Assembly (NCBI GenBank): GCA_965222605.1
Contig: OZ244960.1
Span: forward strand, 5,792,001-5,856,000
DNA length: 64,000 nt
From: Candidatus Latescibacterota bacterium
GTDB lineage: Bacteria; Latescibacterota; UBA2968
Direction: 5' to 3'
Positions 2,768 to 59,721 of this stretch are shown here, in pieces. Positions within the stretch are counted from its first letter, which is position 1, and each line of letters starts with the position of its first letter. Both the position numbers and the translations under genes were made by a program. Under the pieces are notes generated by a model. It did no database searches and had not been told where the DNA came from. It saw nothing but the letters and a program-made list of their open reading frames with translations.

Positions 2768-5700
2768 TTAGTCCTCAGAGGCACGAAATTGCTCATCGTA
2801 TTTATCCAAGTATTCGAGTTCTTGCTCAACCAATCCATAGTGCCTGGCCAGATGGCGATCTACTTTCCTCACCGCGTCTCGAGAAAGCCTAGCATGGACT
2901 TCGTCCATTTCTATAACTCGTCCGCCAGCCCGTATTTGCTTTCTGATTGCTTTCTGATAGAAGTCATTCACCAGATTATCGACAGCCTTATGAAATTCTT
3001 TATCAGACACCAAACTGGAAGGAAATGCAAAATTTTCTACTTGCTTACGTAACAGATGAAACTCATCGGATTGAAGCATCCACCAATAGTAAAATAGACT
3101 TGAATTTACTATTCCAACCGCAGATTTTGCTATATCAGGCGATATAGCATTCATTATCACTAAATTAGATGATATTCCTTTTTTGCCGTCTCGTGCAAAA
3201 TAAGGAGGGTTCAAGTATGCTTTTAACCAATACCGCCCCACCGAATGAAAATACCATTTAGAAGGCTCTTGTGTATTAGTACTATCAGCGCAATAGTCTT
3301 TTATGGATATGTCTATCAAAAGAATCTTCTTATAAATCATTGATCCTATTTCATCGCCGACTCTTGGAATGAATCCCTTTTCTAGAATACCCACGTCGCC
3401 AACTTTGGCTTTCAAGACCACATCTTTTTGTTCACCGTCTCTGAATCTATAAAGCTTTGACGAATGTACTTTACACGGACTATGACCGGCACCGGTGCAA
3501 ATGATAATTGATGTTCGTTGATCAACCTCGGGAAAAATCTTGGCAGGACGAATAGAATAATGAGTTGCCCTTATCTTTCCAAAGTGATTATAAACAACCC
3601 GCCGAACGTTTTCAAAGTCTTGTCCACTAGTAACTGATAAGGGGATAATCATCCCTAGGCTACCCATATTGCTGGCCATTGCACATCCCCGAACTACAAA
3701 ATATCCGGCAAGATTTGCACAACCTTTTGCCAAACTCAGGCGGTCCCAAGACGATTCTTGTATGACATCATACGGCGGGTTTCCCACTACCGCGTCGAAT
3801 CCTTGGTCTTCCTTGCGCTTCCATCTACTTCCCTCCAAGTCAACAAAAGCCTCTGGGAACTCCAGGTCCCAATGGAAAAAGCCTTTCTCTTTACCTATTT
3901 CGACTGCCTTGTTGATGGTTTCGAGGTATTTAGGCGGCGGAGTACTGCGCCCTGCTGGACGTATCTGTTCCACTAAATCAGACCCTGATAAGGTCAAGTA
4001 TTCCTCTGCGAGTTTATTGCCAAAGTGACGGGTGACCCAAATGTCGAGCGCAATTTTGTAGGGGGCCTGGCTCTGTTCAAAGTCTGCAAAGAGGTTGCGG
4101 CTATTCTCGACTTCAGCAGCCGTGGCGTCGGGAATACGTCTCAGTTCCTCAATGGTTGCCGTAGCTGTGAGAAGCCCTTGGAAGGGGCCACCGAATAGGT
4201 CGGCCTGATTGTCCAGTTCCGTTTGTACTTCCTGTACCGTCGTACCGATGAGCGCGTTGCCGCACTTGAGGTGGTGATCCAAGAATGATAGCGGTGCGCC
4301 TATGGTGAAGCAGTCCAACCACAGCGACACCTTGGCCAACTCTACGGCCATGGGAGTCAAATCAATACCATATACACAACGCTTGAGCACATGACGTTTT
4401 AACAAGTTGATGTCAGTCAGACGACTGGCGTCAACCGAAACTCTCTGTCGCTCCATCTCCGAAATGACAGCCTGGCGAGTATTATCGAGAAACTTCGTCA
4501 CAGGATTCCAGGGAAATGCCCGCAAAAAACCCTCGCGTTCTCCGAGGATGTGGTCGCATATAAAGTCCACCGCTTCTACCAGAAAGTGCCCTGAACCCAT
4601 TGCAGGATCGAGAACCCGCAGGTCGAATAACTCATCTACAAGAGGTTGGTAAGTATTTGCAACCTTGTTTGGGTCGTCTGGTTGCAAACCTTGTTTTTTG
4701 AGAACCTCTGCTTGCTGGGACTTTTTGCGGTATCTCTCCTGAGCTTGTCGGAACTTGGGGCGCAGTTTTTCGAACTTATCTTCGAGCACAGGCCCCACCG
4801 TGTTTTCGACGATGTACTTCACAACATGTTCGGGGGTATAATACGAGCCGGTAGCTTTGCGCTCTTGCTGATCATTTTCGAGGTACACATCACCGGGCAG
4901 GTACACACGTTCTTGGGCGTTGCGCGCTCTGCCCTTTTTCAAAACTTTCTTCTTAGATTTCGCCAAGTCTTTGTAGGGGATGACCTCTTCGGTCCGCTTG
5001 CCCTTGACTACAGCCATCTTCTCAGAAGCAATACGGATTTTGAACTCCAATAGCCCCTCATATATAGAGCCAAGCTGCCGCACACCTAAAGATTTGTAAT
5101 CAATGAAAACAAGGTCTTGCCGCTTGTCGTCCAAATCCCTCGTCAGCAAATCCAACCCCTTGGCCAGGTAGCGATCAGGAATTTTGTTCTTTTGCAAAAA
5201 ACGGGCGTTTTTCGCTTCCGAACTACTATCTTCAGGATAAGGCTCTGTAATGAAAAGGCCACCATTATACAGAGGAACGTTTAATTCCCGGTTTCCCCGA
5301 TCAATGGTTGCAAACAATTTCATCAGTCTGTCGTACAGGTCGGTGGTGTCGGTGCGATAGGCTGTATCGAGCTTTGTGGGAGCTTCGTCGTAGATTTTTC
5401 CCGCCTTCTCTGCTATATCCTCTTTTAGCCTGGTGAGGCTATGCTCATAGTATCCTCGCTGTTCTCGAACCGGCAGTAGGCCACGAGCCTCTGCGTAGAG
5501 CAAGAACAACAGGCGGTAAAGCAGGATCAGTGTCCCTTCGAACACTAAACGGCGAAATGTCTCATTCGGTTCCTGTTTAAGAGATAATTGTTGTACAATT
5601 GGAAACAGCATTTTCTGCTGAGGATCGGCGATACCTGGTTGCCTTTTCAGGTGTTCGATAAATCCTTCAGCGAAGTGTGGAAATACCTGATCGAATACGC

Positions 5701-23620: not shown

Positions 23621-24391
23621 TTAGTCCATGGACTCCATGGCGTCCATGTTTACCTTAACGCCTTTTTTCTTCAAGGCGGCAACATGCGTGTTCATTGACA
23701 TGTCATTCAGAGCATTGCGCCTGATATTTAGTGTTGCCAGGTTGGCCAGGCCCGCGGCTGGCGCTATATCCATGACTTTGTTGTTGTTCAGCCCTAAGGT
23801 TTTCAACTCAGCCATGCCCGACACTGCCGAAATATCTGCGACTTTGTTGCCGGAAAGATTCAGATTTCTCAGTTTGGTCGCCTCAGAAAGTGCCGAAATA
23901 TCAGAGATGTTGCGGTTCACACTGAGATTCAGTATTCTCAGATTTTTCAAACCGGAAAGTGCCGATATGTCGGATACATTATTGCGGGTCAGATTTAGCG
24001 TTCTCAGTTTTTTCAAACCTGAAAGTGCCGAGAGGTCAGAGACGGCGTTGCTGTTGACGACCTTGTTTTCCACGCGCGTAGCACCAAGATTCAGTAATGT
24101 CAAATTTTTGGCATGCTCGAGGCCGCTCAAATCGCTGATGTTTGCATTTTGCGCAACAAGACGCTTCAGTTTAGCCATGTCAGCCGTGGTGATCACCGCA
24201 TCGCTCGCCATGCCCAGAGAATCTGCAATGACTGCGCGCAAATTGGCGTCGGCAATCATGACTGGTTTTGGCTCCATTTGTTTAGCGCTTTCGCTTTTTT
24301 GCTCGTTGGCTTTGTGATGGGCGGCGTCACTCGCGCCATAGCTGCATGCAACGAGGAGTGCGAGAATAAAGAGAAGATGTCGATACGTCAT
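23621..24391 (-). CDS. Internalin-like LRR protein, probable lipoprotein
   Basis: LVAC lipobox; DANLRAVI cap; repeats of L..LNL..N.ISDISALSGL. Confidence 0.9.
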   Translation of the reverse strand: MTYRHLLFILALLVACSYGASDAAHHKANEQKSESAKQMEPKPVMIADANLRAVIADSLGMASDAVITTADMAKLKRLVAQNANISDLSGLEHAKNLTLLNLGATRVENKVVNSNAVSDLSALSGLKKLRTLNLTRNNVSDISALSGLKNLRILNLSVNRNISDISALSEATKLRNLNLSGNKVADISAVSGMAELKTLGLNNNKVMDIAPAAGLANLATLNIRRNALNDMSMNTHVAALKKKGVKVNMDAMESMD

Positions 24392-24456
24392 GGGTAGTTC
24401 CTCCAAATGGATTTTTCGTGTGACGGTGAATGGAACTGTGAACTTCTCACAGATAT

Positions 24457-25332
24457 TTAGCTGTCGGTATTTACCTTAACGCCTCTTTCTTTCAAGGCGG
24501 GAATTTGCGTGTTCATTGATGTCTCACTCAGCGCGTTGCGCTTGAGATTGAGTGTTTCCAGCTTAGCCAAACCGGCGATCGGCGCGAGGTCCGCGACTTT
24601 GTTGTTGTTGAGACTCAAGGTTTTCAACTCAGCCATGCCCGACAGTGCCGAAAGGTCAGAGATTTTGTTGACATTGAGCGTCAGTTGTCTCAGATCGGTT
24701 AGACCCGATAGCGGCGCGATATCCGAGATGCCGGTGTTGCTCAGACTCAGGTTTCTCATCTTGGTTAAGCCCGATAGAGACGAAACATCGGCTATCTTTT
24801 TGTTGGCGAAAAACGACAGTACTCTCAACCTGGTCAAGCCCGACAGGACTGAGATGTCAGATATCATGTTGGCACCAAGACGCAGTTGTCTCAGATCGGT
24901 TAGACCCGATAGCGGCGAGAGGTCGGATATTGAGGTGGCGCGTTCAAGGTCCAGGTTTCTCAGCTTGGTCAAACCCGACAGCGGCGAGAGGTCGGATATA
25001 TCATTGCTGTTGACGGCCTTATTATCCACACGCGCAGCACCGAGGTCCAGATGCATCAGGCCGGTTGCATGCTCTAAGCCAGTCAAATCGCCGATGTTTG
25101 CATTTGGCGCTACAATACGCGTCAATTTTGCCATTTCAGCCGCGGTGATCGCCGCATCGCTCGCCATGTTCAGGGAATCTGCAATGACCGCGCGCAGGCT
25201 GGCATCGGAGATGGTCACTGTTTCGGTGCTTTCACTTTTTTTCTCGCTCATTTTGTGATGGACCGCATCACTCGTGCTATAGCTGCATGCAATGAGGAGG
25301 ACAAGAACAAAGGGGAGATGTCGATACATCAT
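24457..25332 (-). CDS. Internalin-like LRR protein, probable lipoprotein (tandem paralogue)
   Basis: LIAC lipobox; 22-aa LRRs; clear similarity to the neighbouring gene. Confidence 0.9.
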   Translation of the reverse strand: MMYRHLPFVLVLLIACSYSTSDAVHHKMSEKKSESTETVTISDASLRAVIADSLNMASDAAITAAEMAKLTRIVAPNANIGDLTGLEHATGLMHLDLGAARVDNKAVNSNDISDLSPLSGLTKLRNLDLERATSISDLSPLSGLTDLRQLRLGANMISDISVLSGLTRLRVLSFFANKKIADVSSLSGLTKMRNLSLSNTGISDIAPLSGLTDLRQLTLNVNKISDLSALSGMAELKTLSLNNNKVADLAPIAGLAKLETLNLKRNALSETSMNTQIPALKERGVKVNTDS

Positions 25333-25539
25333 TGAAATTTCCTCCAGAAGAGGGTGAATGAGACACGCAAAGTGCCCGTGCCAAATGGATGTGATATTGA
25401 GCACAACAACTTACGAGAGATTTCCTCCTTTCTGTTGTGGGTGCGTGTTCTTGTGTGCTCTAATCTGAGGTATGATAATATAAAAGCGGTTGATTAGTCA
25501 ATAAAAATAAGAGGTAAAATGTAAGAGAAGAGGGGATGG

Positions 25540-46291: not shown

Positions 46292-49200
46292 ATGCTCAAA
46301 TCACTTGACCGCATGGGTACCTGGCGGACTTATTCTCTGGATAGCGGCCTTGCCGGGCTGCGCGTTGAACATATCGCCGAGGACAACGAGGGGTGTATCT
46401 GGTTCGCCACCTGGGACAACGGTGTTAGTCGCTTCGACGGGGACGAGTTCCGGAATTTTACCAAACAGGACGGCCTTGTTAATGATCATATTTATTTTGT
46501 TTCACAAGACAGTCAGAATCGATTGTGGTTCGGTACAGAAAAAGGCGTCTGCTGGTACGACGGGGTGGGTTTCCATTATTTGAAGGGCGATGGGATCGCA
46601 GGCCGATCCGTGCAATCTATCTACGAAGATCGTCAGAGGCGTATATGGTTCGGTGGCACGAGTACCCTGGGGTATTACGATGGTACTGTGTTTCACGACA
46701 TGATTCCGCTCTACCTCCAGCACTACGAGCAGCCTCCTTCTCATCAGTGGGCCATGTGTTGGGGTATTACTCAGGATCCGCAAGGACACCTGTGGTTTGG
46801 CTTTGACCGCCTCATCCGCTTTGATGGTGAATTCTTCCACCGCTATGAAGAGAAAGACGGTTTTCCCTACGAAGGGACCGCCTATGTCGTGGGCCAGGAC
46901 CATACCGGCAAGGTGTGGATTGGTCGGTTCGGAAATCGAGATGAACTCTGGTGCTATGCCGATGGTGCCTTCCAATCTGTTCAGGTAAATTTGGGAGGCT
47001 GGCTACGCAAAATTCAGTGTGACCGTGAAGGGCGAATGTGGTTCTGCACCTCGGAAGGGGTATTGTATCAGGACAGTGACGGATTCAGCAGGTTTCCCCT
47101 TGCCGATGGCTTGTCCCATCCCGCAGTCAAAGCCGTGTTTCAGGATCGCGATCATCAGTATTGGTTCGCCACCTGGAGCGGCGTTGGACTTTACGATGCT
47201 CATAGTATCAGCGTTTTTGACCTCGGTAAGGCTTTTCCCAAAGACAAAGAGCCGAGCGAAATCTCGCAGATCGTACAAGATCGGCAAGGTGATATATGGA
47301 TCGGGTGTGTGTCACCCCTTCTTACTGACCTGCCCCAAAGCGTCGCCCGCTTTGATGGCGAGCACTTTACATTTGTAGGCTCCGAGCAAGGCTTTGATAT
47401 CAACAACTGTTTCTCTATGTACGAGGACCACGAGGGGTATCTGTGGTTTGGCGGCCTCAACGGCCTGTTCCGCTACGATGGGCAGGAAATAAAAAAAATA
47501 AAAATAGCTGCGGGTTCAGGCGACAGGAGTATCAGTACAATTACCCAGGACGCGCAAGGTCAATTCCTTTTCGGCTATTGGGGAAAGGGCACCTATAAAA
47601 CTAAAATCGGATTCAAAAAAGAAGAGTTTTCGACCAGCCCATTAGAGATCATTTACCAGCGGGGCGAGGCGTTCCAAACCATTTTTGTGGAGGATGAAAA
47701 GAAAGATATTTTAGACCGCATTGGCACTGTGATTGCCGGGCGCAACAGCGAGATCTATTTTCATTTGGCCTGCCACAATTTCTCAGTTGGCAACAGGGGC
47801 TTCGCTCGCTGGCATCCCGAAGATGGCCTTAAATTTTATGGAATTGAAGATGGTTTGATAGACCCCAAGGTCAACGACCTGCTATTAGACCGCGCAGGCA
47901 ACCTGTGGATTGCCACTTTGAGCGGTCTCGTTCGTTTTGATGGCTACACTTTCCACACATTCACGACTGAAGACGGTCTGCCGAACAACCGCATTCGGTG
48001 TCTATTCGAGGATCGGCAAGGACACCTCTGGCTCGGGACAGAAGGCGGTGTAGTTCACTACGATGGTCAGCTTTTTCAGACCATCAAGTCACCGCATATA
48101 GGATCGGTTTCTCAGATATTCGAAGATCGCGACGGAACGTTCTATTTTGGCACTGCTCTGGGTTCTATAATACGCTATCGCCAGCGGCAAACTCCGCCCC
48201 AGATTCGCCTGATTCAGGTTGTCGCCGATCAGGTCTATGAGAACTTAGACGACATCATCTTGTCCACGGCAGGACAGCAGGTGATTTTCGAATACAAGGG
48301 GATGAGTTTTTCCACACATCCGCGCGACATGCTCTATGTCTATCGCCTGAAGGGATACGACTCCGACTGGCGTCCAGCGACCCGAAAGATGCGGGCCTTT
48401 TACCGGGGCTTGCCGCCGGGAGACTACACCTTTCAGGTCAGGTCTATAGATCGCGATCTCAATTATTCAGAGATCGCGCAGGTAAGACTCTCGATAACGG
48501 CGGACCCGCGTATCGAAGCATTTACGGACATAATCAACCGTCGAGGAAGCCAGAAGTTTATCGGGCATAGCGAGGCTCTGCGCGAGTTTCTAATCAATCT
48601 TGAAAAAATCGCATCTACCAATATAACTGTGCTGATTATGGGCGAGACAGGTGTGGGCAAGGGACTGGCAGCACGGGTGCTACACGCGCTGAGTAACCAT
48701 AGCGATGGGCCTTTTATAGAGGTTAGTTGCGGTGCATTGCCCGAGGCGTTGATCGATAGCGAACTTTTTGGTCACGAGCAAGGGGCTTTTACCAGCGCTA
48801 TTTCCCGCAGACTGGGCAGGGTGGAACTGGCGGAGGGTGGCACGCTCTTTTTGGATGAGATCGGCGATATGGCTGTGGAAACGCAGGTCAAGCTGTTGCG
48901 CTTGCTGGAAGAGGGCACGTTTGAGCGCGTTGGGAGCAGCGAGACGCTGACGACAAAGACGCGGATTGTGGCAGCGACGAATCGCAATCTGGAAGAGATG
49001 GTCAGCACAGATGATTTTCGGGAGGATCTCTATTACCGCCTCAATGCCTTTCCGATGTATTTGCCGCCGCTGCGCGAGCGCAAGGAGGATATACCATACC
49101 TTGCCGAGTTTTTCAAGAACCGCATGGCGACACATTTAGATAAGCAAATCGGCCCTTTGACAGTAGAGGTTATAGAAGTGCTGCAAGCCTACCATTGGCC

Positions 49201-49498
49201 AGGCAATGTGCGAGAACTGGAGCATACGATAAACCGCGCCGTAATCGTGTGTCAGGATTCTCGAATTGACGTTGGGGATATCGGCCTCATAAGCAGTAGC
49301 TCTCCTGTTTTTACAGACCGAGAAATCGTGCCTTTGGCTGAATATGAACGCGATTACATACTCAAAGTGCTCAAAGCGACCAACTATCAGATAAAAGGTG
49401 TTCATGGTGCAGCGGCACTGCTGGGACTACACCCTTCGACGCTGTATGGGAAAATGAGAAAACAGGGTATCAAACGCCCAGGTAAAGATCATATATAA
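46292..49498 (+). CDS. Sigma-54 enhancer-binding protein with Reg_prop beta-propeller repeats and Y_Y_Y domain
   Basis: Repeats of D..G.LWFGT..GV.RFDG; YVYRLKGYD..W......Y..LPPGDYTFQV; GETGVGK, LFGHEQGAFTSA, FLDEIGD, FREDLYYRL, WPGNVREL; Fis-type HTH. Confidence 0.93.
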   Translation: MLKSLDRMGTWRTYSLDSGLAGLRVEHIAEDNEGCIWFATWDNGVSRFDGDEFRNFTKQDGLVNDHIYFVSQDSQNRLWFGTEKGVCWYDGVGFHYLKGDGIAGRSVQSIYEDRQRRIWFGGTSTLGYYDGTVFHDMIPLYLQHYEQPPSHQWAMCWGITQDPQGHLWFGFDRLIRFDGEFFHRYEEKDGFPYEGTAYVVGQDHTGKVWIGRFGNRDELWCYADGAFQSVQVNLGGWLRKIQCDREGRMWFCTSEGVLYQDSDGFSRFPLADGLSHPAVKAVFQDRDHQYWFATWSGVGLYDAHSISVFDLGKAFPKDKEPSEISQIVQDRQGDIWIGCVSPLLTDLPQSVARFDGEHFTFVGSEQGFDINNCFSMYEDHEGYLWFGGLNGLFRYDGQEIKKIKIAAGSGDRSISTITQDAQGQFLFGYWGKGTYKTKIGFKKEEFSTSPLEIIYQRGEAFQTIFVEDEKKDILDRIGTVIAGRNSEIYFHLACHNFSVGNRGFARWHPEDGLKFYGIEDGLIDPKVNDLLLDRAGNLWIATLSGLVRFDGYTFHTFTTEDGLPNNRIRCLFEDRQGHLWLGTEGGVVHYDGQLFQTIKSPHIGSVSQIFEDRDGTFYFGTALGSIIRYRQRQTPPQIRLIQVVADQVYENLDDIILSTAGQQVIFEYKGMSFSTHPRDMLYVYRLKGYDSDWRPATRKMRAFYRGLPPGDYTFQVRSIDRDLNYSEIAQVRLSITADPRIEAFTDIINRRGSQKFIGHSEALREFLINLEKIASTNITVLIMGETGVGKGLAARVLHALSNHSDGPFIEVSCGALPEALIDSELFGHEQGAFTSAISRRLGRVELAEGGTLFLDEIGDMAVETQVKLLRLLEEGTFERVGSSETLTTKTRIVAATNRNLEEMVSTDDFREDLYYRLNAFPMYLPPLRERKEDIPYLAEFFKNRMATHLDKQIGPLTVEVIEVLQAYHWPGNVRELEHTINRAVIVCQDSRIDVGDIGLISSSSPVFTDREIVPLAEYERDYILKVLKATNYQIKGVHGAAALLGLHPSTLYGKMRKQGIKRPGKDHI

Positions 49499-49601
49499 TC
49501 TCAAGGATCATATATGATCTTTTGTTGTTAAAATACTATTATTAAGATACTTAAGTAATACATAAGAGTTAGACTGATTATTTTTGAGATCATATACGAT
49601 C
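49487..49601. promoter_or_regulatory. Three palindromic putative upstream activator sites GATCATATA(T/C)(G/A)ATC
   Basis: GATCATATATAATC 49487-49500, GATCATATATGATC 49506-49519, GATCATATACGATC 49588-49601. Confidence 0.7.
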
Positions 49602-49702
49602 TCGAAAATATAAAATACAGTCTAACTCTTATTTTTTTATAATAATTCTATCCTGATTAAAAATAACATCTTACGAGTATAGTTATTTGGGTCCATTCAC
49701 AG

Positions 49703-49718
49703 TGGCACACATATTGCA
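49703..49718 (+). promoter_or_regulatory. Sigma-54 (-24/-12) promoter
   Basis: TGGCAC-ACATA-TTGCA consensus, 65 bp upstream of the next gene. Confidence 0.85.
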
Positions 49719-49782
49719 TTATATCTATGTGTTTAATGCCATAAAGGAGAAGATTTAGACTTCAAAGAAAGGAAGGTAGAGT

Positions 49783-50625
49783 ATGAAACATTTTTTGGTA
49801 TTTGTGGTCATTGCAAGTTGCTTGTGGTTATCACATCCGGCGGCGCATGCCGAGTCAGATAGGGCATTTTTGAAGAAGACCATTAAGGAAAACTTGGAGG
49901 GCGCGAGTTCGTCGGAAATCATTTTTGCCAGGTACGGGCGGCGCACCATCACGTTGAAACCCCTCGCGACCAGCCAGTATGAAATGCGCCTGGCACTCTG
50001 GACTTTGATGGGCGAGCCGGTTGAACTTTATGAATGCCTCATGCCGCACTTGGGGAGCCTGATCTTTGGAGCGAACGACGGTTACGCCAATAGAGTTGAA
50101 ATTGTCAGCGTCGGTGATAAAAACGAGACTGACATATCATTCTACGGCGATAGCAAAGTGTACGTCAGCCAGGACGTGTTGGACAAAATCGATTACGTGG
50201 ACTTTAGCTTTTCGATCGTGACCTATGACCTTTTTGAATTGCCGGACGAGTTCTATTCGAAAGACAATAGCATGCGTTTTGGTACTTTTAAAGCGTATAT
50301 CCATTTGAAGAACCCTGGTGTTTTGGCTTCACCCGGCAAATGGGGCTGGGACACGCCAGGAAGTCCTGAATGGGAAAAATTTCTGTCGAAGTATCAATTT
50401 CCTTTGGATGAAGGTAAATACAAGTTGCCGGAAGACCATTACATGGACGAAAAGCAGGCTAAGGAGGCATTTCGCCGCATGCGCTGGCGTTACCACAAAA
50501 AACAGGACTTATTCGTTAAAAACTGGTTCGATATTCATCATTTGCGCGTGAATCCGGACCGTATCCTGGACCTCATCCGCAAACACAGTCCTGAAGCCTA
50601 CGCCGAGATCATGGAAAAAGAATAA
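49783..50625 (+). CDS. Hypothetical secreted protein
   Basis: Signal peptide ending AHA; no recognised domain. Confidence 0.7.
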   Translation: MKHFLVFVVIASCLWLSHPAAHAESDRAFLKKTIKENLEGASSSEIIFARYGRRTITLKPLATSQYEMRLALWTLMGEPVELYECLMPHLGSLIFGANDGYANRVEIVSVGDKNETDISFYGDSKVYVSQDVLDKIDYVDFSFSIVTYDLFELPDEFYSKDNSMRFGTFKAYIHLKNPGVLASPGKWGWDTPGSPEWEKFLSKYQFPLDEGKYKLPEDHYMDEKQAKEAFRRMRWRYHKKQDLFVKNWFDIHHLRVNPDRILDLIRKHSPEAYAEIMEKE

Positions 50626-50811
50626 AGCAAGTGAGGTGGAATATGAAACGTTTTTGGTTGTGCTTGAGGTGGATTGATGATTTGCATTTTTCTACCTGGC
50701 TTGTGCAACAGAAAGGCGGTTTACTTATGAGAGGTCAAAGCATAAGTAAAGCAAGTTATCAGTACAAAATAAGACGTGCCTGTTTTTAAGACTACAAGAA
50801 AGGGGTTCAGT

Positions 50812-51582
50812 ATGTGGCGCATGTTTGTCGTCTTGGCCGTTGTGGTGAGTTGCTGGACGGTGTATTCTGTGTATTCCGAACCGAGTTTTCCAATGCCTGA
50901 GATGGTGATGATTCCGTCGGGCAGTTTTCAGATGGGCTGTGTGTCGGGTAGGCGCTGCTCGGACGCTGAGAAACCTGTGCATGAAGTGATGATAGACTCG
51001 TTTGCCCTGTCGAAGTATGAGGTGACCTTTGAGGAGTATGATGCATTCACCGATGCGACGGGACGCGAGCGGGCAGACGATGAAGGTTGGGGGCGTGGTC
51101 GGCGTCCGGTGATCAATGTTTCGTGGTTTGATGCGATGGCCTACACGCAGTGGCTGTCGTCACAGACGGGCAAGACCTATCGTTTGCCGAGCGAGGCGGA
51201 GTGGGAGTATGCAGCGCGCGCGGGAACTGAGACGATGTTTAGCTGGGGGAATGATTCTGGTTACAACCGCGCCAATTGCAATGGCTGTGGCAGTCGGTGG
51301 GATAAAAAACAGACGGCACCAGTGGGATCATTCGAGGCCAATGGCTGGGGCCTTTACGACATGCACGGTAATGTATGGGAGTGGGTACGAGATTGTCGGA
51401 ACGAGAGTTATAGGGGCGCACCGACAGATGGTTCTGCATGGATTGGAATTTGCTCTGAGCGCGTGTTGCGTGGTGGTTCGTGGTACTTCAGCCCGTGGGT
51501 CTTGCGGTCGGCGTATCGCGACTGGTACCCCTCCGGCTATCGGGACGACGTCATCGGTTTTCGAGTTGCCCGGTCTTTTTAG
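50812..51582 (+). CDS. Secreted FGE-sulfatase/C-type-lectin-fold protein, DGR-target-like (intact)
   Basis: PEMVMIPSGSFQMG, EKPVHEV, YEVT, PVINVSW, RLPSEAEWEYAARAG, GLYDMHGNVWEW, RGGSW...GFRVAR. Confidence 0.92.
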   Translation: MWRMFVVLAVVVSCWTVYSVYSEPSFPMPEMVMIPSGSFQMGCVSGRRCSDAEKPVHEVMIDSFALSKYEVTFEEYDAFTDATGRERADDEGWGRGRRPVINVSWFDAMAYTQWLSSQTGKTYRLPSEAEWEYAARAGTETMFSWGNDSGYNRANCNGCGSRWDKKQTAPVGSFEANGWGLYDMHGNVWEWVRDCRNESYRGAPTDGSAWIGICSERVLRGGSWYFSPWVLRSAYRDWYPSGYRDDVIGFRVARSF

Positions 51583-51705
51583 CTCCTGATTCTTTACATC
51601 TTTACTTCATTTGTGGGGCTGGGGACTGGCGGGGGTTTTACGATTTTTTTAGCGACCACTATGATTGCACTTGAGTCGGTGAACAAGTATCTAAAGGAGG
51701 CATCT

Positions 51706-51969
51706 ATGTGGAACCATATTATGTTGACCATTTGTTCGGTGTTTGTGTTGACAGGTCCGGCATCGACTGGAGACATGACCCGTGACCCGGACAAGGACTT
51801 CAATAAGCTAAGCACCGCAGGAAACCAACGCCCTCAAGGGATCTGGTCGAACGGAACGACCATGTGGGTGGTGGACTCCTATGACCAGAAAATTTATGCC
51901 TACAACCTGAGGACCAAAGCCCGTGACTCGAACAGGATGATAGCTGGGACCGCGAGAATCGTCCTGTGA
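51706..51969 (+). pseudogene. Truncated secreted protein with a GIWSNGTTMWV-type repeat
   Basis: RBS AAGGAGG; signal peptide; DKDFNKL..AGN..P.GIWSNGTTMWVVD...KIYAY; runs out of frame into FGE copy 2. Confidence 0.6.
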
Positions 51970-52442
51970 TGAATGTGAGCTGGGAAGATGCCCAGTCTTA
52001 TGTTCGCTGGTTGTCTGGCAAGACGGGAAAACCCTATCGTTTATTGAGTGAATCGGAATGGGAGTATGTGGCGCGTGCAGGTACAGAGACGGCGTATAGC
52101 TGGGGGGATCATATTGGTGAAAACCGTGCCAATTGTGATGGTTGCGGCAGTCAGTGGGATGGTAAGCAGACGGCGCCAGTGGGATCATTCGCAGCCAATG
52201 GCTGGGGCCTTTACGACATGCACGGTAATGTAAGGGAGTGGGTGGAAGACTGCTATCATGGCAGCTATGCGGGCGCACCTACTGATGGAAGTGCACGGGA
52301 GTCTACGGAGGGGTGCTGGCGCGTGTTTCGTGGTGGTTCGTGGGACCTCGAACCGAGGAATTTGCGTTCGGCGTATCGCAGCAGAGGCACCACCGATGTT
52401 CGGTACTACAGCATCGGTTTTCGAGTTGCCCGGTCTTTTTAA
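51936..52442 (+). pseudogene. 5'-truncated FGE/C-type-lectin DGR-target-like copy 2
   Basis: Frame begins mid-domain (DDSWDRENRPVMNVSW); high DNA similarity to copy 1; ends RGGSW...GFRVARSF. Confidence 0.8.
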
Positions 52443-52622
52443 CTCCTGATTCTTTACATCTTTACCTCTTTTGTGGGGGAGGGTGGGGGGTGGGGGCTTG
52501 GGGGTTGGTTTTAGACGGGGGGTTTTACGATTTTTTTTCGAGGGAGGGTTTACGTGGTATGTTCGAAGAATTTTCCCCATTGAACAATCCTGTTATAGGA
52601 TAGGATATCAGGAGTTAGGCTT

Positions 52623-53081
52623 TTGAATGACCAGTCAAATGCTCGGGCACGTCAAACTGGACCGGCATTAGAGGCACATTACCAGTTCATTCTGTGGCTG
52701 GTGCCCACCCTGGAGCGATTTCCCCGCAATCAGTGGGATGCAGAGAAGACAGCTCCAGGGGGCTCGTTTAGTGCCAACAGATGGGGTCTCCACGACATGC
52801 ACGGTAATGTGGCAGAGTGGGTGCAAGATTGTTGGAACTGGGATTACAAGGGGGCACCTGCAGACGGTTCTGCGTGGGAGTCTGGGGACTGTTCTGAGCG
52901 CGTGTTGCGTGGTGGTTCGTGGATAAGCGAACCCTATTCTGATTTCAGTCTTGCTATCTGCTCGGCATGTCGGGCCAGCATACTCCTCAAATCTCGCCAA
53001 AGAAGGATTTTCGGTCATATAGTTGGAGGTGAAATTTTCCGAAGTAGCACCGTCGGTTTTCGAGTTGTCCGGTCTTTTTAG
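52623..53081 (+). CDS. Chimera: DGR Avd N-terminal fragment fused to FGE C-terminal half (copy 3)
   Basis: ARQTGPALEAHYQFILWLVPTLERFPRNQ (Avd-like) joined directly to WDAEKTAPGGSFSANRWGLHDMHGNV. Confidence 0.75.
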   Translation: MNDQSNARARQTGPALEAHYQFILWLVPTLERFPRNQWDAEKTAPGGSFSANRWGLHDMHGNVAEWVQDCWNWDYKGAPADGSAWESGDCSERVLRGGSWISEPYSDFSLAICSACRASILLKSRQRRIFGHIVGGEIFRSSTVGFRVVRSF

Positions 53082-53132
53082 ATCCTGATTCTTTATTTTT
53101 TCCCTCTTGTGTGGGGGAGGAAGGAGAAAACC

Positions 53133-54788
53133 ATGCGTAAACGAATCACGACTGTTGTTATCATCGTCACCACGCTTTTGATCTATCCGCTGTCTCAGGT
53201 TCCTGGGAGTAGTCACGATACATGTGATACGCCGCCTAACAGGGCCCCTATGGCGAAGGGCACCATTGATCCTGTGACGCTGGGTGTTAATCCTGATACT
53301 ATAGATGTATCGGACAAATTCAAGGATGATGACGGAGATACGCTGACATACAAGGTATTAGTGAGTGCAGACGCCATTGTAAAGGCGCATATGGATAGCA
53401 GTAAAGTGATAATCGGTCGGGACAGTGTGTTCCGTGCGACAATTACCGTGGTGGCTACAGACCCAGACAGTTTGAAGGCAACGCAGACGATAGCAGTGAA
53501 GGTGAATCAAGCTCCTTTGGCGGTGGACTCGATTGCTTCCGTGATGCTGGGTGTTGATCCCGACACTGTGGATGTATCGGACAAATTTAGCGATGCGGAC
53601 GGAGATACACTGACATACAAGGCGACGGTGAGTGATACAGCTATTGCAACGGTGAGTATGGATGATGGCAAGGTGACCATCAAGCCTGGGACGAAGGAGG
53701 GCAATACGATGGTGACGGTGACAGCGGAAGATCGGTGGGGATTGCAAGCAAAACAATACATTGCTGTGGTACAAGTGGATCCGATAATCAAAGTCATTGA
53801 ACACATAATCATTGTGTTTGTAGTAACTGGAATTGGAGCTTTGCTTTTAAAATTCGCCTTTAAATTTAATTTTAACTTTGATACTCGTATAGGTGAAAAA
53901 GGTAAGGTTCAGGAAAATAAAGATGCGCTTAGGAGGCTCCAGTATATCGTCGGAGTTCTGGGTATCGGACTGCCGCTTCTCCTGCTCATTGCATGTCTGT
54001 ACGATTACGGGTCTAATACTATGATGGTAGAAGATTTCAGTAAGTGTGTCAAAAATTCAATCAGTGCGTATTACGATAGCGCGAGTCGAGACGTATTCGT
54101 TGGGATTCTATGCGTAATCGGTGCATTTCTGTTTGCCTATAAAGGCTATGACACTCGGGATGACCAGGCGAGCCATCTCGCGGGATTGTCGGCGTTCGGA
54201 GTTGCACTCTTCCCCGCGACAAGCAACAACAGAGCGGTAGAGGCGATGCATTACTTGTCTGCCATATTGCTCTTTTTGACGCTGGCCTATATTTCGCGGT
54301 ATCGTTTTACAAAATCGAAATGTGAGTCTATACGACCAGGAACGCTCAAGGCGAAACGGAACCAGGTGTATAATTGGTGTGCTTATATGATGATATTTGG
54401 CCTGCTTGCTATCGGTGCATTTAAGTGCTTGAAATTGCCCGCGATGAACGACTACAAGATGATGTCCGCCGCCGTGCTACTTTTGGTACTGACCTATTTT
54501 TTAATAAATGCCTATTTTTCATGGCATTCTACAGAAAAGGCTAAACAGAATAAGAAAAGCGCACATGTGATAACATTTGGCCTCTTCGCTATTGGAGTTG
54601 GGGTTTGGACACAATATTATCTGACTTCGTTTCCCTTTATGTTTGTGACCGAAACCGTGCTGTTTTTAGCGTTTGGCATTTCGTGGTTGGTCAAGAGTGA
54701 CACATTGATATTATTACGCGATAAAGATGAAAATGATGTCGATGATGATCAAAATGGTGCCGATGACGATGAAAATGATAGTGCGTAG
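53133..54788 (+). CDS. Signal peptide, two Ig/cadherin-like repeats, then a DUF998-like multi-TM domain
   Basis: Duplicated N.AP....I..V.LGV.PDT.DVSDKF.D.DGDTLTYK; SISAYY....RDVFVG.L...G.FL..YKGY; acidic tail. Confidence 0.75.
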   Translation: MRKRITTVVIIVTTLLIYPLSQVPGSSHDTCDTPPNRAPMAKGTIDPVTLGVNPDTIDVSDKFKDDDGDTLTYKVLVSADAIVKAHMDSSKVIIGRDSVFRATITVVATDPDSLKATQTIAVKVNQAPLAVDSIASVMLGVDPDTVDVSDKFSDADGDTLTYKATVSDTAIATVSMDDGKVTIKPGTKEGNTMVTVTAEDRWGLQAKQYIAVVQVDPIIKVIEHIIIVFVVTGIGALLLKFAFKFNFNFDTRIGEKGKVQENKDALRRLQYIVGVLGIGLPLLLLIACLYDYGSNTMMVEDFSKCVKNSISAYYDSASRDVFVGILCVIGAFLFAYKGYDTRDDQASHLAGLSAFGVALFPATSNNRAVEAMHYLSAILLFLTLAYISRYRFTKSKCESIRPGTLKAKRNQVYNWCAYMMIFGLLAIGAFKCLKLPAMNDYKMMSAAVLLLVLTYFLINAYFSWHSTEKAKQNKKSAHVITFGLFAIGVGVWTQYYLTSFPFMFVTETVLFLAFGISWLVKSDTLILLRDKDENDVDDDQNGADDDENDSA

Positions 54789-55331: not shown

Positions 55332-56405
55332 ACGTGATGTGTGACTTTAAATAGCGAAAAAGAGGTTCCTCGGCTATCTTGAATTGTTCACTAAACAAGA
55401 AGCCATTCAACGAAAGGAACCTCCAATGTATAATTTAGACCTTTTTGTCATTGCAATCTACTGTTTTATTGAAGACGAACTTTATTCGGCTTTCTGTAAG
55501 GTACATGGCAAGCCCCGTCAAGCAGGCTTTGAGCCCGGTCTAAGTGATGCCGAATGTCTCACCATAGAAATCGTGGGTCACTTTCTGGGATATTCAAGCC
55601 AGAAAAAACTTTATGAGCAGATGAAAGAACACTTCATAGATTGGTTTCCCACTTTGAAAGACCGTCCTGCCTTTGTGCGTCAATGTGCCAATTTGTGGGT
55701 TGTCAAGATGTGGATGCAACAGCGGATTGTTGCCAGCTTGGAAGGGCATCAGGCATCCTGCCAGATCATAGATACGCTACCCTTACCGATCTGTAAACTG
55801 GCAAGGCGACATTATCGCAAGATATTTACAAGAGAGCCAGTCTTTGAGTTCCCACCCCCTTCAAAAGGCTTCTGTGCTGCCAAAAGCGAAGCGTATTTTG
55901 GTTTTAAGGGTGGCCTGAGGATCACGGATTATGGCCTTATTGTCCACGCGCCGATCTTGAAAGCGTATGGACACGACAAGAACTGCCGAGAGGCACTCCT
56001 TGATGGCACAATGGGAGATACAACCGTCTTGGCCGATGCGGCCTTTATGGATTTGGACTGGCAAAAAAGGTGCTTTGATACCTACCGAATACGCATAAAG
56101 ACACCCTTAAAGTCCAATATGAAAGACAATCCTGAACGCACCCCTTTCATTTTGCCCAAAGCGAAGAAAGCCACAAGGCGATTAGTCGGAGCGGTGTACA
56201 ACTTCGCAGAAGTTCAACCGTTTATGCACAATTGACAGAACGCTTGCATATTGCCCGCATGAAAGTGCGAGATGCATGGCATTTATTGAACTTGTGGCAT
56301 ACCAAAATCTTAACCCATACTATGTGTGTCTTTCTCAATATCATCAATTATCGAGACCCTCTTGATTTTGATGGCCTCGTGCAATTTTGAAGTCACACAT
56401 CGCGT
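55332..56405 (+). mobile_element. IS982-family insertion sequence with 9-bp target-site duplication
   Basis: Inverted repeats ACGTGATGTGTGACTTTAAA / TTTGAAGTCACACATCGCGT; TSD TATACACAG at 55323-55331 and 56406-56414. Confidence 0.93.
55426..56390 (+). pseudogene. IS982 transposase, frameshifted near 56190-56215
   Basis: LSDAECLTI, IIDTLPLPIC, YFGFKG, LADAAF; the C-terminus (TVYAQLTERLHIARMKVRD...KILTHT) is in another frame. Confidence 0.85.
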
Positions 56406-57402: not shown

Positions 57403-59721
57403 ATGCGTAAACAGATTCTGTTTCTCTTATCAACACTCGCGCTTTTGATATATCCGCTGTCTCTTTCGGGACAGAATAGTACGGCAGGTGATCAAGACCT
57501 TACCCCGGACTTTGATGGGGATGGTCAGGTTGGCTTCCCTGACTTTTTGGCGTTTGTGGGTCAGTTTGGGGCACGTGAGGGGGATGGGCGTTATGATGTC
57601 AGATATGATCTGGATAGTGATGGCGAAATTGGATTTTCCGATTTTCTGCTCTTTAGTGCCAGCTTTGGCAAAGGGGAGCCTGCCTCTGGCGGTGATGGTG
57701 CAACGATGGTTGCTATTCCGGATGGGAACCTGCGTGCTGCTATTGAGGCTATTCTCAACAAGGTGAGTGGTGCGCCGATCACTCAGGGTGAGATGGCGGC
57801 CTTGACGCGCCTTGATGCCCGGAATGCGAATATCAAGGACTGGGCCGGGCTTGAGTTTGCGACTAACCTGATAGATCTGAATCTTGAAGACAACAACCTC
57901 TCGGATGTATCTGCGTTGTCTGGCTTGACTCGTCTGGAAGTGCTGAATCTTGGGTCCAACGACCTCTCAGATGTGTCTGCGTTGTCGGGCTTAACCAACC
58001 TGACATTTCTGAATCTTTCTGACAACAGTATCTCGGACCTCACGCCCCTATCGAGTTTGACTAACCTGACAACGCTGGATCTTTCCGGCACCGGCGTCAG
58101 GGATTTGTCAGCGTTGTCTGGCTTGACCAATCTGGAATCGCTGGATCTTGCTAACAACAGGATCACGGATGTATCTGTATCGTCATTGTCAGTTTTGACC
58201 AATCTGAGGTCGTTGGAACTTTCCTCCAACTTCATTGGTGATGTATCTGCATTGTCAGTTTTGACCAATCTGAGGTCGTTGGATCTTTCCTCCAATTTCA
58301 TCAGGGATGTGTCCGCGCTGTCTGGCTTGGTCAATCTGACGGATCTGGATCTTTCCTTCACGAGCATCAGTGATGTGTCAGTGCTGTCTGGCTTGATCAA
58401 TCTGGAATCGCTGGATCTTTCCTTCACCAGTATCAGTGATTTGTCAGTGCTGTCTGGCTTGATCAATCTGGAATCGCTGGATCTTTCCGGCACCGGTATC
58501 AGGGATTTGTCAGCGTTGTCTGGCTTGACTAATCTGACAAGTCTGAAACTTTACAAAACCAGTATCTCAGACCTCGCACCTCTGGTCGCAAACACGGGAT
58601 TGGGCAGTGGAGATGAGATTGATGTGAGAGAAACTCCGTTGAGTGACACATCACGCAAAACGCATATTCTATCCCTTCTGCGTAGAGGAGTTGAGATTTC
58701 TTTTTATGTAAGTATCCCAGATATTAATCTGCACGCTGTTATTGAGGATAGTCTCGGCAAGGCGCAAGGGGCACCAATTGCGGTAGCTGAAATGGCGGCC
58801 TTGACGCGCTTTAGTGCCCGGGATGCGAATATTAGGGACTTAACAGGGCTTGAGTTTGCTGCTAATCTGGTATGGTTACATCTTGGTTCCGGTGTGATTG
58901 ATCCGTTTTCCAACAGCAACGAGATATCCGACATCTCGCCCCTTTCTGGCTTGACCAACCTGACTTATCTGAATCTTTTTCTCAACGATGTCTCGAATAT
59001 CACCCCATTATCAGGCTTGACCCGTCTGGAATGGCTGAATCTTGCCAACAACAGCATCAGTGATGTGTCCGCGCTGTCAGGCTTGACCCGTCTGGAAGGG
59101 CTGAATCTTAACAATATGAACATCACAGATGTGTCAGCACTATCGGGCTTGACCCGTCTGGAATGGTTGCGTCTTACATTCAGCGACATTGTTGATGTGT
59201 CCGCGCTGTCAGGCTTGACCAACCTGACTTTTCTGTTTCTTGGTTACACCAACATCTCGAATATCACACCATTATCAGGCATGACCAATCTGGAAGAACT
59301 GCGTCTTAACAATAACAACATCAGTGATGTGTCCGCACTCTCAGGCTTGACCCGTCTGAATTACCTGGTGCTTACCCGCAACAACATCAGTGATGTGTCC
59401 GCACTCTCAGGCTTGACCAATCTGGAACAGCTGTGGCTTTACAACAACAGCATCTCGGATCTTGCGCCTCTGGTGGCAAACACGGGATTGGGTACTGGAG
59501 ATGTGGTTGGTGTGCAGAATAATCCGTTGAGTGCCATATCGCTCAACACGCATATTCCAGCCCTTCAAGACAGAGGAGTTGAGGTGCGTTTTGGCGCGTT
59601 GAAGCCCGCGGTGGAGAAGGAGGAATCCTCAGGGCTTGAGGAGTGGGAGGCAGGAGATTATATTTTTCGCAGGCAGGTGGAGAAGGGAAAGGACGCGCTC
59701 AAATCCGCGACAGAGCAGTAA
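57403..59721 (+). CDS. Secreted EF-hand/dockerin-like plus internalin-type LRR protein
   Basis: Signal peptide; DFDGDGQVGFPDF...YDLDSDGEIGFSDF; two LRR blocks built from ~66-bp repeats. Confidence 0.92.
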   Translation: MRKQILFLLSTLALLIYPLSLSGQNSTAGDQDLTPDFDGDGQVGFPDFLAFVGQFGAREGDGRYDVRYDLDSDGEIGFSDFLLFSASFGKGEPASGGDGATMVAIPDGNLRAAIEAILNKVSGAPITQGEMAALTRLDARNANIKDWAGLEFATNLIDLNLEDNNLSDVSALSGLTRLEVLNLGSNDLSDVSALSGLTNLTFLNLSDNSISDLTPLSSLTNLTTLDLSGTGVRDLSALSGLTNLESLDLANNRITDVSVSSLSVLTNLRSLELSSNFIGDVSALSVLTNLRSLDLSSNFIRDVSALSGLVNLTDLDLSFTSISDVSVLSGLINLESLDLSFTSISDLSVLSGLINLESLDLSGTGIRDLSALSGLTNLTSLKLYKTSISDLAPLVANTGLGSGDEIDVRETPLSDTSRKTHILSLLRRGVEISFYVSIPDINLHAVIEDSLGKAQGAPIAVAEMAALTRFSARDANIRDLTGLEFAANLVWLHLGSGVIDPFSNSNEISDISPLSGLTNLTYLNLFLNDVSNITPLSGLTRLEWLNLANNSISDVSALSGLTRLEGLNLNNMNITDVSALSGLTRLEWLRLTFSDIVDVSALSGLTNLTFLFLGYTNISNITPLSGMTNLEELRLNNNNISDVSALSGLTRLNYLVLTRNNISDVSALSGLTNLEQLWLYNNSISDLAPLVANTGLGTGDVVGVQNNPLSAISLNTHIPALQDRGVEVRFGALKPAVEKEESSGLEEWEAGDYIFRRQVEKGKDALKSATEQ

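Follow-up and report, generated by a model that had tools for sequence, protein, structure and literature searches.

What remains of a diversity-generating retroelement (DGR) once its enzymes are lost, and can its former targets still be told apart from ordinary genes? A 64,000-nucleotide stretch of the genome of a Candidatus Latescibacterota bacterium (G000:C1:5792001-5856000, hereafter the window) raises this question, because profile search of its open reading frames (ORFs) finds three frames of the formylglycine-generating enzyme (FGE)-sulfatase family (PF03781) lying head to tail on the + strand. The genome under study, G000, measures 6.34 Mb on a single contig, and its assembly is 98.68% complete. 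We conclude that the variable regions (VRs) ending two of these frames are very probably frozen targets of a recently dead DGR: the VRs of this genome bear the historical imprint of an adenine-directed template repeat (TR), and the reverse transcriptase (RT), the accessory protein Avd and the TR itself survive in it as stubs.

The original prediction, made from the letters alone, had described the array as a relic comprising three FGE/C-type-lectin genes with VR-like ends and no TR or RT. All three frames do match the family, yet only copy 1 is intact, copies 2 and 3 being fragments; likewise, copies 1 and 2 possess VR ends, whereas copy 3 carries a 132-nt segment that is not of TR type. The array and its variable ends are laid out as follows.

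50776/50812-51582, + strand: copy 1 frame (PF03781, 206 bits, profile positions 2-255)
50812..51582, + strand: copy 1, an intact gene of FGE-type C-lectin fold (256 aa, start ATG 50812), in a frame open from GTG 50776
51966-52442, + strand: copy 2 frame (PF03781, 132.5 bits, profile positions 93-255)
52623-53081, + strand: copy 3 frame (PF03781, 75.2 bits, profile positions 154-230)
51460..51572, + strand: VR1, the TR-homologous 113-nt block, with variable core 51484-51555; TR/VR identity stops at 51572
52320..52432, + strand: VR2, the TR-homologous block, with variable core 52344-52415
51573..51623, + strand: conserved segment 3' of the TR-homologous block (families D12 and D7), which holds the stop codon 51580-51582 and is absent from the TR
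52433..52545, + strand: post-VR spacer with a G-rich tract and the motif GGGGTTTTACGATTTTTTTT, common with the spacers that precede avd at the stub locus described below (L001) and in the congener G016

Copy 1 starts with a hydrophobic, signal-like segment; its FGE-sulfatase/C-lectin domain is C-terminal and closes with the VR, which ends 8 codons short of the stop. Its best match among solved structures is PvdO (5hha, E 7.8e-46, residues 28-255), and it also matches a variable protein of Treponema denticola (2y3c, E 2.5e-16). Alignments to solved true FGEs end no later than residue 225, the start of the VR core. A predicted structure built from an 8-row paralog alignment was too poor for use (mean predicted local distance difference test score 43.9, predicted template modelling score 0.44). 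FGE-like catalysis by copy 1 seems unlikely, because the C-terminal segment is hypervariable among paralogs; copy 1 probably represents a secreted binding protein of fixed specificity that is still encoded. More generally, the FGE-sulfatase genes of this genome appear from their sequences to be frozen hypervariable binding proteins rather than sulfatase-maturing enzymes.

Variation in copies 1 and 2

Does the variation between the two VRs of the window differ in kind from the divergence of the genes that carry them? Between GGSW and GFR, copies 1 and 2 each have 24 codons and differ at 26/72 nt, distributed 14/7/5 over codon positions 1, 2 and 3, exactly the counts first reported (21 at positions 1-2). 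The flanks had been called nearly identical. This holds for the immediate surroundings (1/24 nt differ 5' of the core, 1/27 in the 3' coding flank and 4/41 after the stop) and fails for the gene bodies upstream, which are only 70.9% identical (111/381 differ, at positions 32/27/52, a third-position excess). Since the bodies themselves are that divergent, the core identity of 63.9% is not much lower. Distinctive in this pair are the near-identity islands around the core and a reversed codon-position bias, positions 1-2 holding 21/26 of the core differences versus 59/111 of those in the body (Fisher p = 0.014).

The 3' sequence that the original prediction had noted past the stop of all three copies is confirmed as a 48-nt block (family D12), common to them at 90-100%. 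VRs and TRs have GGTTTTCGAGTTG(C/T)CCG in common; from there the VRs go on G-TCTTTTTA..., whereas the TR stub of this genome and the G016 TR go on C-ACGCTCG.... The VR 3' end, corresponding to the initiation of mutagenic homing (IMH) sequence, hence departs from the TR 3' end (IMH*) right after the common block, and the segment 51573..51623 is a candidate target-recognition element on the IMH side. Post-VR DNA from five sequences folded no better than shuffles (z -0.73 to +0.27), and a recurrent CCTC...GAGG hairpin, seen by eye ~35-45 nt after the VR, was dropped as being without statistical support.

Seven variable regions and the adenine test

Besides one divergent FGE paralog lacking the block and a partial match of 44 nt (6.0924 Mb), a blastn search of the whole genome with the two VRs located five further genes with a VR block, of which two lie on the minus strand (6.0892 and 6.0931 Mb) and the others at 1.4435, 1.4459 and 2.6986 Mb. 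We refer to the seven VRs as W1 and W2 (window copies 1 and 2), A, B, C, D and E. D and E belong to kinase-linked genes:

L001 5145-7155, minus strand: gene D (kinase-FGE), broken into three ORFs (327, 188 and 158 aa), with a PP2C phosphatase gene upstream
L001, minus strand, neighbour of D: kinase-FGE gene E, intact, 644 aa

Gene D thus looks like a further decayed target. When the seven VRs are aligned, CCG, TTG-CGT-TCG-GCG, CGC and CGG prove to be fixed codons, many third-position C's (NNC codons) are likewise constant, and codon positions 1-2 vary freely elsewhere. When the TR of G016, which is intact, is taken as reference and a column is called variable if at most five of the seven VRs agree, 29/33 TR-adenine columns are variable versus 9/80 others (Fisher p 5.6e-15, in a test that treats paralogous VRs and neighbouring columns as independent). 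The signature of adenine-specific mutagenesis that had been proposed from two copies is thereby recovered in seven.

Might these genes nevertheless be ordinary FGE paralogs, whose C-terminal loop diverged by positive selection while gene conversion kept the flanks alike? The window pair taken by itself gives this idea some room, because 64% identity in the core is not extreme beside bodies of ~71% and the codon-position contrast of a single pair is modest. Selection on a loop is hard to reconcile, though, with variable columns that coincide with the adenines of a real congener TR, with the invariant third positions of NNC codons and the constant CCG, TTG, CGT, TCG, GCG, CGC and CGG codons in seven paralogs, or with stubs of RT, TR and Avd in the same genome. 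We regard an origin without a DGR as extremely improbable.

How far have the VRs drifted since they were last written? Relative to the G016 TR they differ at 16-23/33 adenines and at 9-19/80 other sites. Many of the latter differences are common to all seven VRs, so the TR of this lineage would have differed from that of G016. Compared with the genome's own 50-nt TR stub, 8-13/18 A sites and 1-8/32 non-A sites are changed, and gene E, which adjoins the stub, has the fewest non-A changes (1/32). If a TR is instead inferred for this genome from the consensus of the VRs, the non-A changes of 80 sites number 3 in W1, 5 in W2, 8 in A, 13 in B, 5 in C, 2 in D and 1 in E, counts that are lower bounds and partly circular because they are measured against a TR derived from the VRs themselves; VR1 and VR2 are changed at 23/33 and 16/33 TR-adenine sites, respectively. 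Such numbers would fit some ordinary mutation since the last homing. What the alignments suggest, then, is the historical adenine signature of a TR-VR system, as opposed to a TR-VR pair of the present day.

An intact cassette in a congener

The template that these comparisons presuppose does exist in the genus. At a single locus, G016 has three tandem Ser/Thr-kinase-FGE (STK-FGE) targets followed by avd, RT and TR. Its avd product matches PF22296 at 67.2 bits; searches of Avd against solved structures gave 0 matches at E up to 0.01. The RT (375 aa; PF00078, 62 bits) is 93% identical to the RT stub of the genome under study, and its best solved match is the 328-aa chain 8ub7_A, named 'Reverse transcriptase' (E 7.1e-41), which we take to be the phage enzyme bRT. 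The TR lies directly after the RT stop and encodes RVLRGGSW-NNKPRNLRSANRNRNTTENRNNNN-GFRVA, with which the AAC-rich template deduced beforehand from the window agrees at all but about two residues; the lack of any A-rich TR in this or related genomes, earlier singled out as the finding that would speak against the idea, is thus answered by G016. Four G016 VRs differ from their own TR at 17-18/33 adenines and at 0-1/80 other bases, a pattern that reads as the textbook signature of an active DGR. Within this array an Avd N-terminal stub already follows each tandem target.

A further feature of the cassette lies beyond the TR. The ~140 nt directly 3' of the TR in G016 (L015 11095-11235, + strand) and of the TR stub in G000 (L001 8215-8355, minus strand) form a stable predicted RNA fold with a long terminal hairpin (z = -3.46 and -2.98, respectively; 0/200 shuffles as good), and by eye both sides of the hairpin carry changes between the two genomes. 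This RNA may be a priming or structural element of DGRs of the avd-RT-TR type. Scanned against Rfam at E up to 0.1, neither the cassette locus of G016 nor the stub locus of G000 gave a match.

Remnants of the machinery

What is left of such a cassette in the genome that carries the window? As the original prediction had stated, neither TR nor RT was found in the window by repeat, profile and blastn searches. PF00078 gave 0 matches over the whole genome, in a search that was positive in 3/14 control genomes and on the G016 RT. With the full-length G016 RT as query, one match emerged on the minus strand (6092403-6092747), spanning residues 63-177 of the 375. This RT stub, fused to the end of a TR, lies ~249 kb from the window. 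The G016 Avd finds three stubs, covering residues 14-68, 13-55 and 9-42 of 132, the last one in the window. The genome-wide blastn with the VRs that had been suggested as a check (word size 7, E up to 10) brought up the ~50-nt TR stub only and no full TR.

At the stub locus, L001, the minus strand presents after gene E, in order, a post-VR spacer of the window type, an Avd N-terminal stub and the fused RT fragment, which runs into the last ~50 nt of an AAC-rich template and then into the divergent continuation. Because the intact order is avd-RT-TR, two internal deletions would account for this arrangement, and the second of them sits at a short microhomology between RT and TR. Judged by sequence, the assembly appears to hold no functional RT, TR or Avd, and the locus does not qualify as a functional DGR because none of the three is intact.

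We envision the following history. Assisted by Avd, the RT would have copied the TR RNA with errors at adenines, as the family and the G016 cassette suggest. The cDNA would then have replaced the 113-nt C-terminal block of every gene with a matching 3' recognition end, thereby rewriting ~22 codons of the ligand-binding face of the FGE-type C-lectin fold. Two deletions of the microhomology type have since cut down the sole cassette, at 6.092 Mb, of which an Avd stub, residues 63-177 of the RT and the final ~50 nt of the TR are left.

Frozen targets or service in trans

Are the VRs of the window fixed, or might they still be served from elsewhere? The original prediction had offered both possibilities, frozen products or remote targets served in trans. 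The first is favoured, and the second fits the past rather than the present. Targets occur at at least four loci (the window, 1.44, 2.70 and 6.09 Mb), so at least some would have been served in trans, and since the only RT/TR stub lies ~249 kb off, remote service of the window in former times is probable. Across the single contig of 6.34 Mb no other RT or TR was found; we accordingly take the alleles of the VRs to be fixed, and service in trans today is unlikely.

A living system would require an RT, Avd and TR outside the assembly, on a plasmid, in a prophage variant or in a structural variant confined to part of the population, and diversification of the window VRs as remote targets. There are precedents: trans action and partial-population structural variants with intact RT/TR have been described for Thiohalocapsa PB-PSB1 (PMC10907252), and remote targets more than 100 kb away in another study (PMC5758913). 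The recognition end past the TR block is, moreover, 90-100% conserved in all three window copies, and the VRs of D and E carry 1-2 non-A changes only. These points are outweighed, in our view, by an assembly of this size and completeness, on one contig, with no RT and no full TR found, by the 3 and 5 non-A changes of W1 and W2, and by the fragmentary state of copies 2 and 3. Sequencing data point the same way, if weakly. Four runs were covered, all as Logan contigs, from which rare variants are dropped; no RNA run is listed as containing the stretch. In runs X1 and X2, which contain the stretch, contigs over VR1 (51346-51583) and over VR2 and copy 3 (52203-53200) show 0 differences among those listed, that is, one sequence per VR, and depth in the VR bins is at the single-copy level. 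Runs X3 and X5 hold small shares only, consisting of pieces from relatives or paralogs. Contig joints that might have indicated a variant of the locus (e.g., 51600 to 52647, with 37 letters between) fit the paralogous 2.70-Mb locus instead. We thus deem ongoing diversification in trans a slim prospect.

Several observations nonetheless weigh against a frozen relic, or soften the evidence for one. Contig-only data hide rare alleles, so that low-level diversification would escape notice, and a plasmid or phage with RT and TR could be missing from an assembly that is 98.68% complete. The only full TR available for the adenine test is that of another species, from which the VRs depart at the non-A sites given above; the test assumes independence, the non-A counts against the inferred TR are in part circular, and the divergence of the gene bodies makes the core of the window pair less conspicuous than it would otherwise be. 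The non-coding 3' segment, for its part, is ~90% conserved versus ~71% for the gene bodies, a contrast that points to a recent death of the system or to some other role for the segment. Lastly, an Avd stub in the window is no proof of a former whole cassette, because the G016 array has Avd stubs between its targets. Taken together, we still hold frozen targets of a recently dead DGR to be very probably the correct description of the window VRs.

Origin of copies 2 and 3

How did the array come to hold one gene and two fragments? The pieces are the following.

51706..51935, + strand: 5' remnant of a repeat-protein gene (signal peptide and one ~47-aa repeat), joined out of frame to copy 2 at 51935|51936
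51936..52442, + strand: copy 2, 5'-truncated FGE fragment without profile positions 1-92 and without signal peptide
52632..52733, + strand: Avd (bAvd accessory protein) N-terminal stub, residues 9-42 of 132, 79% identical to the G016 Avd (E 3.3e-13)
52726..53081, + strand: copy 3, in-frame fusion of an FGE fragment with the Avd stub via an 8-nt imperfect microhomology (52726-52733)

Upstream of copy 2, homology to the repeat gene, a full-length paralog of which lies at L002 3561-4793, stops by ~51934 and FGE homology begins at 51936, the homology of the search query breaking at query position 1335/1336; a TGA stands in the FGE frame directly upstream. Because the repeat-gene and FGE parts are out of frame and the TGA lies just upstream, copy 2 is a pseudogene produced by deletion. 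The Avd stub is related at the nucleotide level to that of L001 across 52647-52733, and its ORF gave no Pfam match. Copy 3 is an Avd-stub/FGE chimera: where the other copies have the VR core of 72 nt, it carries 132 nt (52923-53054) that depart from the template, and it has only the flanks in common with copies 1 and 2, the 3' flank spanning 53055-53095. Both copies are thus best read as fragments made by deletion.

A long C-terminal segment of non-TR type is also present in G014, where an FGE gene (L038, G014:C1:4890000-4906000, reverse strand ~4400-4520) has one before the shared GGTTTTCGAGTT end, like copy 3. C-terminal segments bearing this recognition end may come in a second, longer class within the genus.

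Did the window once hold a complete cassette of its own, in cis, that was later deleted? This is a sub-question of the frozen-target account. An Avd stub stands right after copy 2, fused by deletion to the downstream FGE fragment; a G014 locus with the same neighbours (a sigma-54 activator homolog, repeat-protein genes and FGE genes) continues into an RT stub of residues about 227-348; and the paralogous 2.70-Mb locus has an FGE gene, an Avd stub and then the same Ig-like gene. As evidence of a lost local cassette, however, the window stub was set aside, since Avd stubs evidently travel with duplicated targets, the intact G016 array having the same stubs between its tandem targets, and searches of the window turned up no vestige of an RT or TR. 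A former cis cassette is conceivable, and we incline somewhat against it.

The surroundings of the array are themselves duplicated. The window locus 46292-54788 is one of several paralogous segments in the genome (others: L002 339-7958 and L003 4133-6513): L002 contains a paralog of the sigma-54 activator (46292-49498; propeller/Y_Y_Y domains), and in L003 an FGE gene is flanked by paralogs of the 280-aa protein (49783-50625) and of the Ig-like membrane protein (53109-54788). The secreted protein of ~47-aa repeats (GIWSDGTTMWV...KIYAYN; L002 3561-4793 and window 51706-51935), which matches no Pfam family above the curated cut-off, adjoins FGE targets in several genomes of the genus, in tandem copies. 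Beyond these, an ORF ~2.3 kb downstream of the array (55384-56235, + strand) has a weak DDE transposase match (PF13612, 25.8 bits; cut-off 27), and leucine-rich-repeat proteins (LRR_4, up to 263.7 bits) are encoded at 23621-25404 (minus strand) and 57403-59721 (+ strand) by DNA repeats of 66-nt period (families D1-D3 and D6).

Decay across the genus

Is this death peculiar to one genome? The full RT query has DGR-type matches in 4/21 genomes and finds the enzyme intact only in G016. The others are stubs, each truncated differently:

G000: residues 63-177
G014: residues about 227-348
G008: residues 1-114, with a stop

Matches at 24-30% identity in G013, G015 and G020 lie in long frames (584-654 aa) and belong to other RTs. 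FGE-family DNA matches, by comparison, occur in 18/20 congeners. A scan for VR blocks, covering 13 loci from 12 congeners, found blocks of VR type in loci of six of them (G003, G008, G012 with two, G014, G017 and G020), changed relative to the G016 TR at 18-26/33 adenine sites and 10-18/80 other sites. From these sequences the DGR looks ancestral in the genus and seems to be decaying independently in several species.

Conceivably, a receptor repertoire built by a DGR outlives its diversifier, such that hypermutation acts as a burst generator, the products of which are kept as fixed, germline-like binding proteins, secreted or linked to kinases. We offer this generalization as speculation and think it rather unlikely. 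If it were true, the orphaned genes would stay addressable upon reacquisition of a cassette, because their recognition ends are still conserved.

The locus provides a clean, datable example of DGR death. Since an intact cassette occurs in this genus beside three RT stubs with different truncations and numerous orphaned variable genes, two questions can be put to a direct test: how long DGR-made diversity lasts once the diversifier is gone, and whether targets left without one can still be recognised. Of all this, the orphaned variable genes found across the genus most deserve further attention. There is also a consequence for annotation: two of the three 'genes' in the array are fragments, and the FGE-sulfatase label is misleading for the binding proteins of this genome.

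Comparison with known systems

How does this locus relate to DGRs already described? The kind of element is not new, because incomplete loci, remote targets and degraded components are on record (PMC10907252, PMC5758913): multi-target DGRs with FGE-type targets, some more than 100 kb off, in the one (PMC5758913), and in the other incomplete DGR loci, candidate remote targets diversified in trans, degradation of redundant components, and duplicated target C-termini recombined with different N-terminal domains (PMC10907252). The closest likeness is to the TvpA system of T. denticola and other DGRs of the Lineage-4 type, which in that account have a C-terminal VR in an FGE-sulfatase fold, an AAC-rich TR, and several targets, some of them over 100 kb away from the RT (Wu et al. 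2018, PMC5758913); unlike them, our genome has RT, TR and Avd as stubs and no longer qualifies as having a DGR. The kinase/STAND-FGE 'antigen sensor' loci of multicellular bacteria (Doré et al. 2024, PMC10907252) are similar in their incomplete loci and Ser/Thr-kinase-FGE fusions, represented here by gene E and the G016 targets. There, intact copies of RT/TR reportedly persist, either within the genome itself or in a fraction of the population, and diversification continues at most loci, whereas none was found intact in our genome; the damage reported there consists of insertions of transposons or miniature inverted-repeat transposable elements (MITEs), as opposed to internal deletions here (PMC10907252).

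With regard to true FGEs and PvdO, the Pfam family is the same (PF03781), and it is where the alignments to true FGEs stop that the segment hypervariable here begins. The DGR of Bordetella phage BPP-1 (bRT-Avd-TR, with the Mtd target) resembles the present system in its RT family, its bAvd-like accessory protein (PF22296), TR-to-VR differences specific to adenines and a VR that parts from the TR immediately beyond a GC-rich block common to both. It differs in that the system here is chromosomal, has many targets, which are of FGE-type rather than Mtd-type C-lectin fold, and shows no significant hairpin just after the VR when folds are compared with shuffles. In the Bordetella phage the TR lies between avd and RT, unlike in G016, where it follows the RT (avd-RT-TR). 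The window locus is thus a relic of a known kind, which once worked like the known multi-target DGRs.

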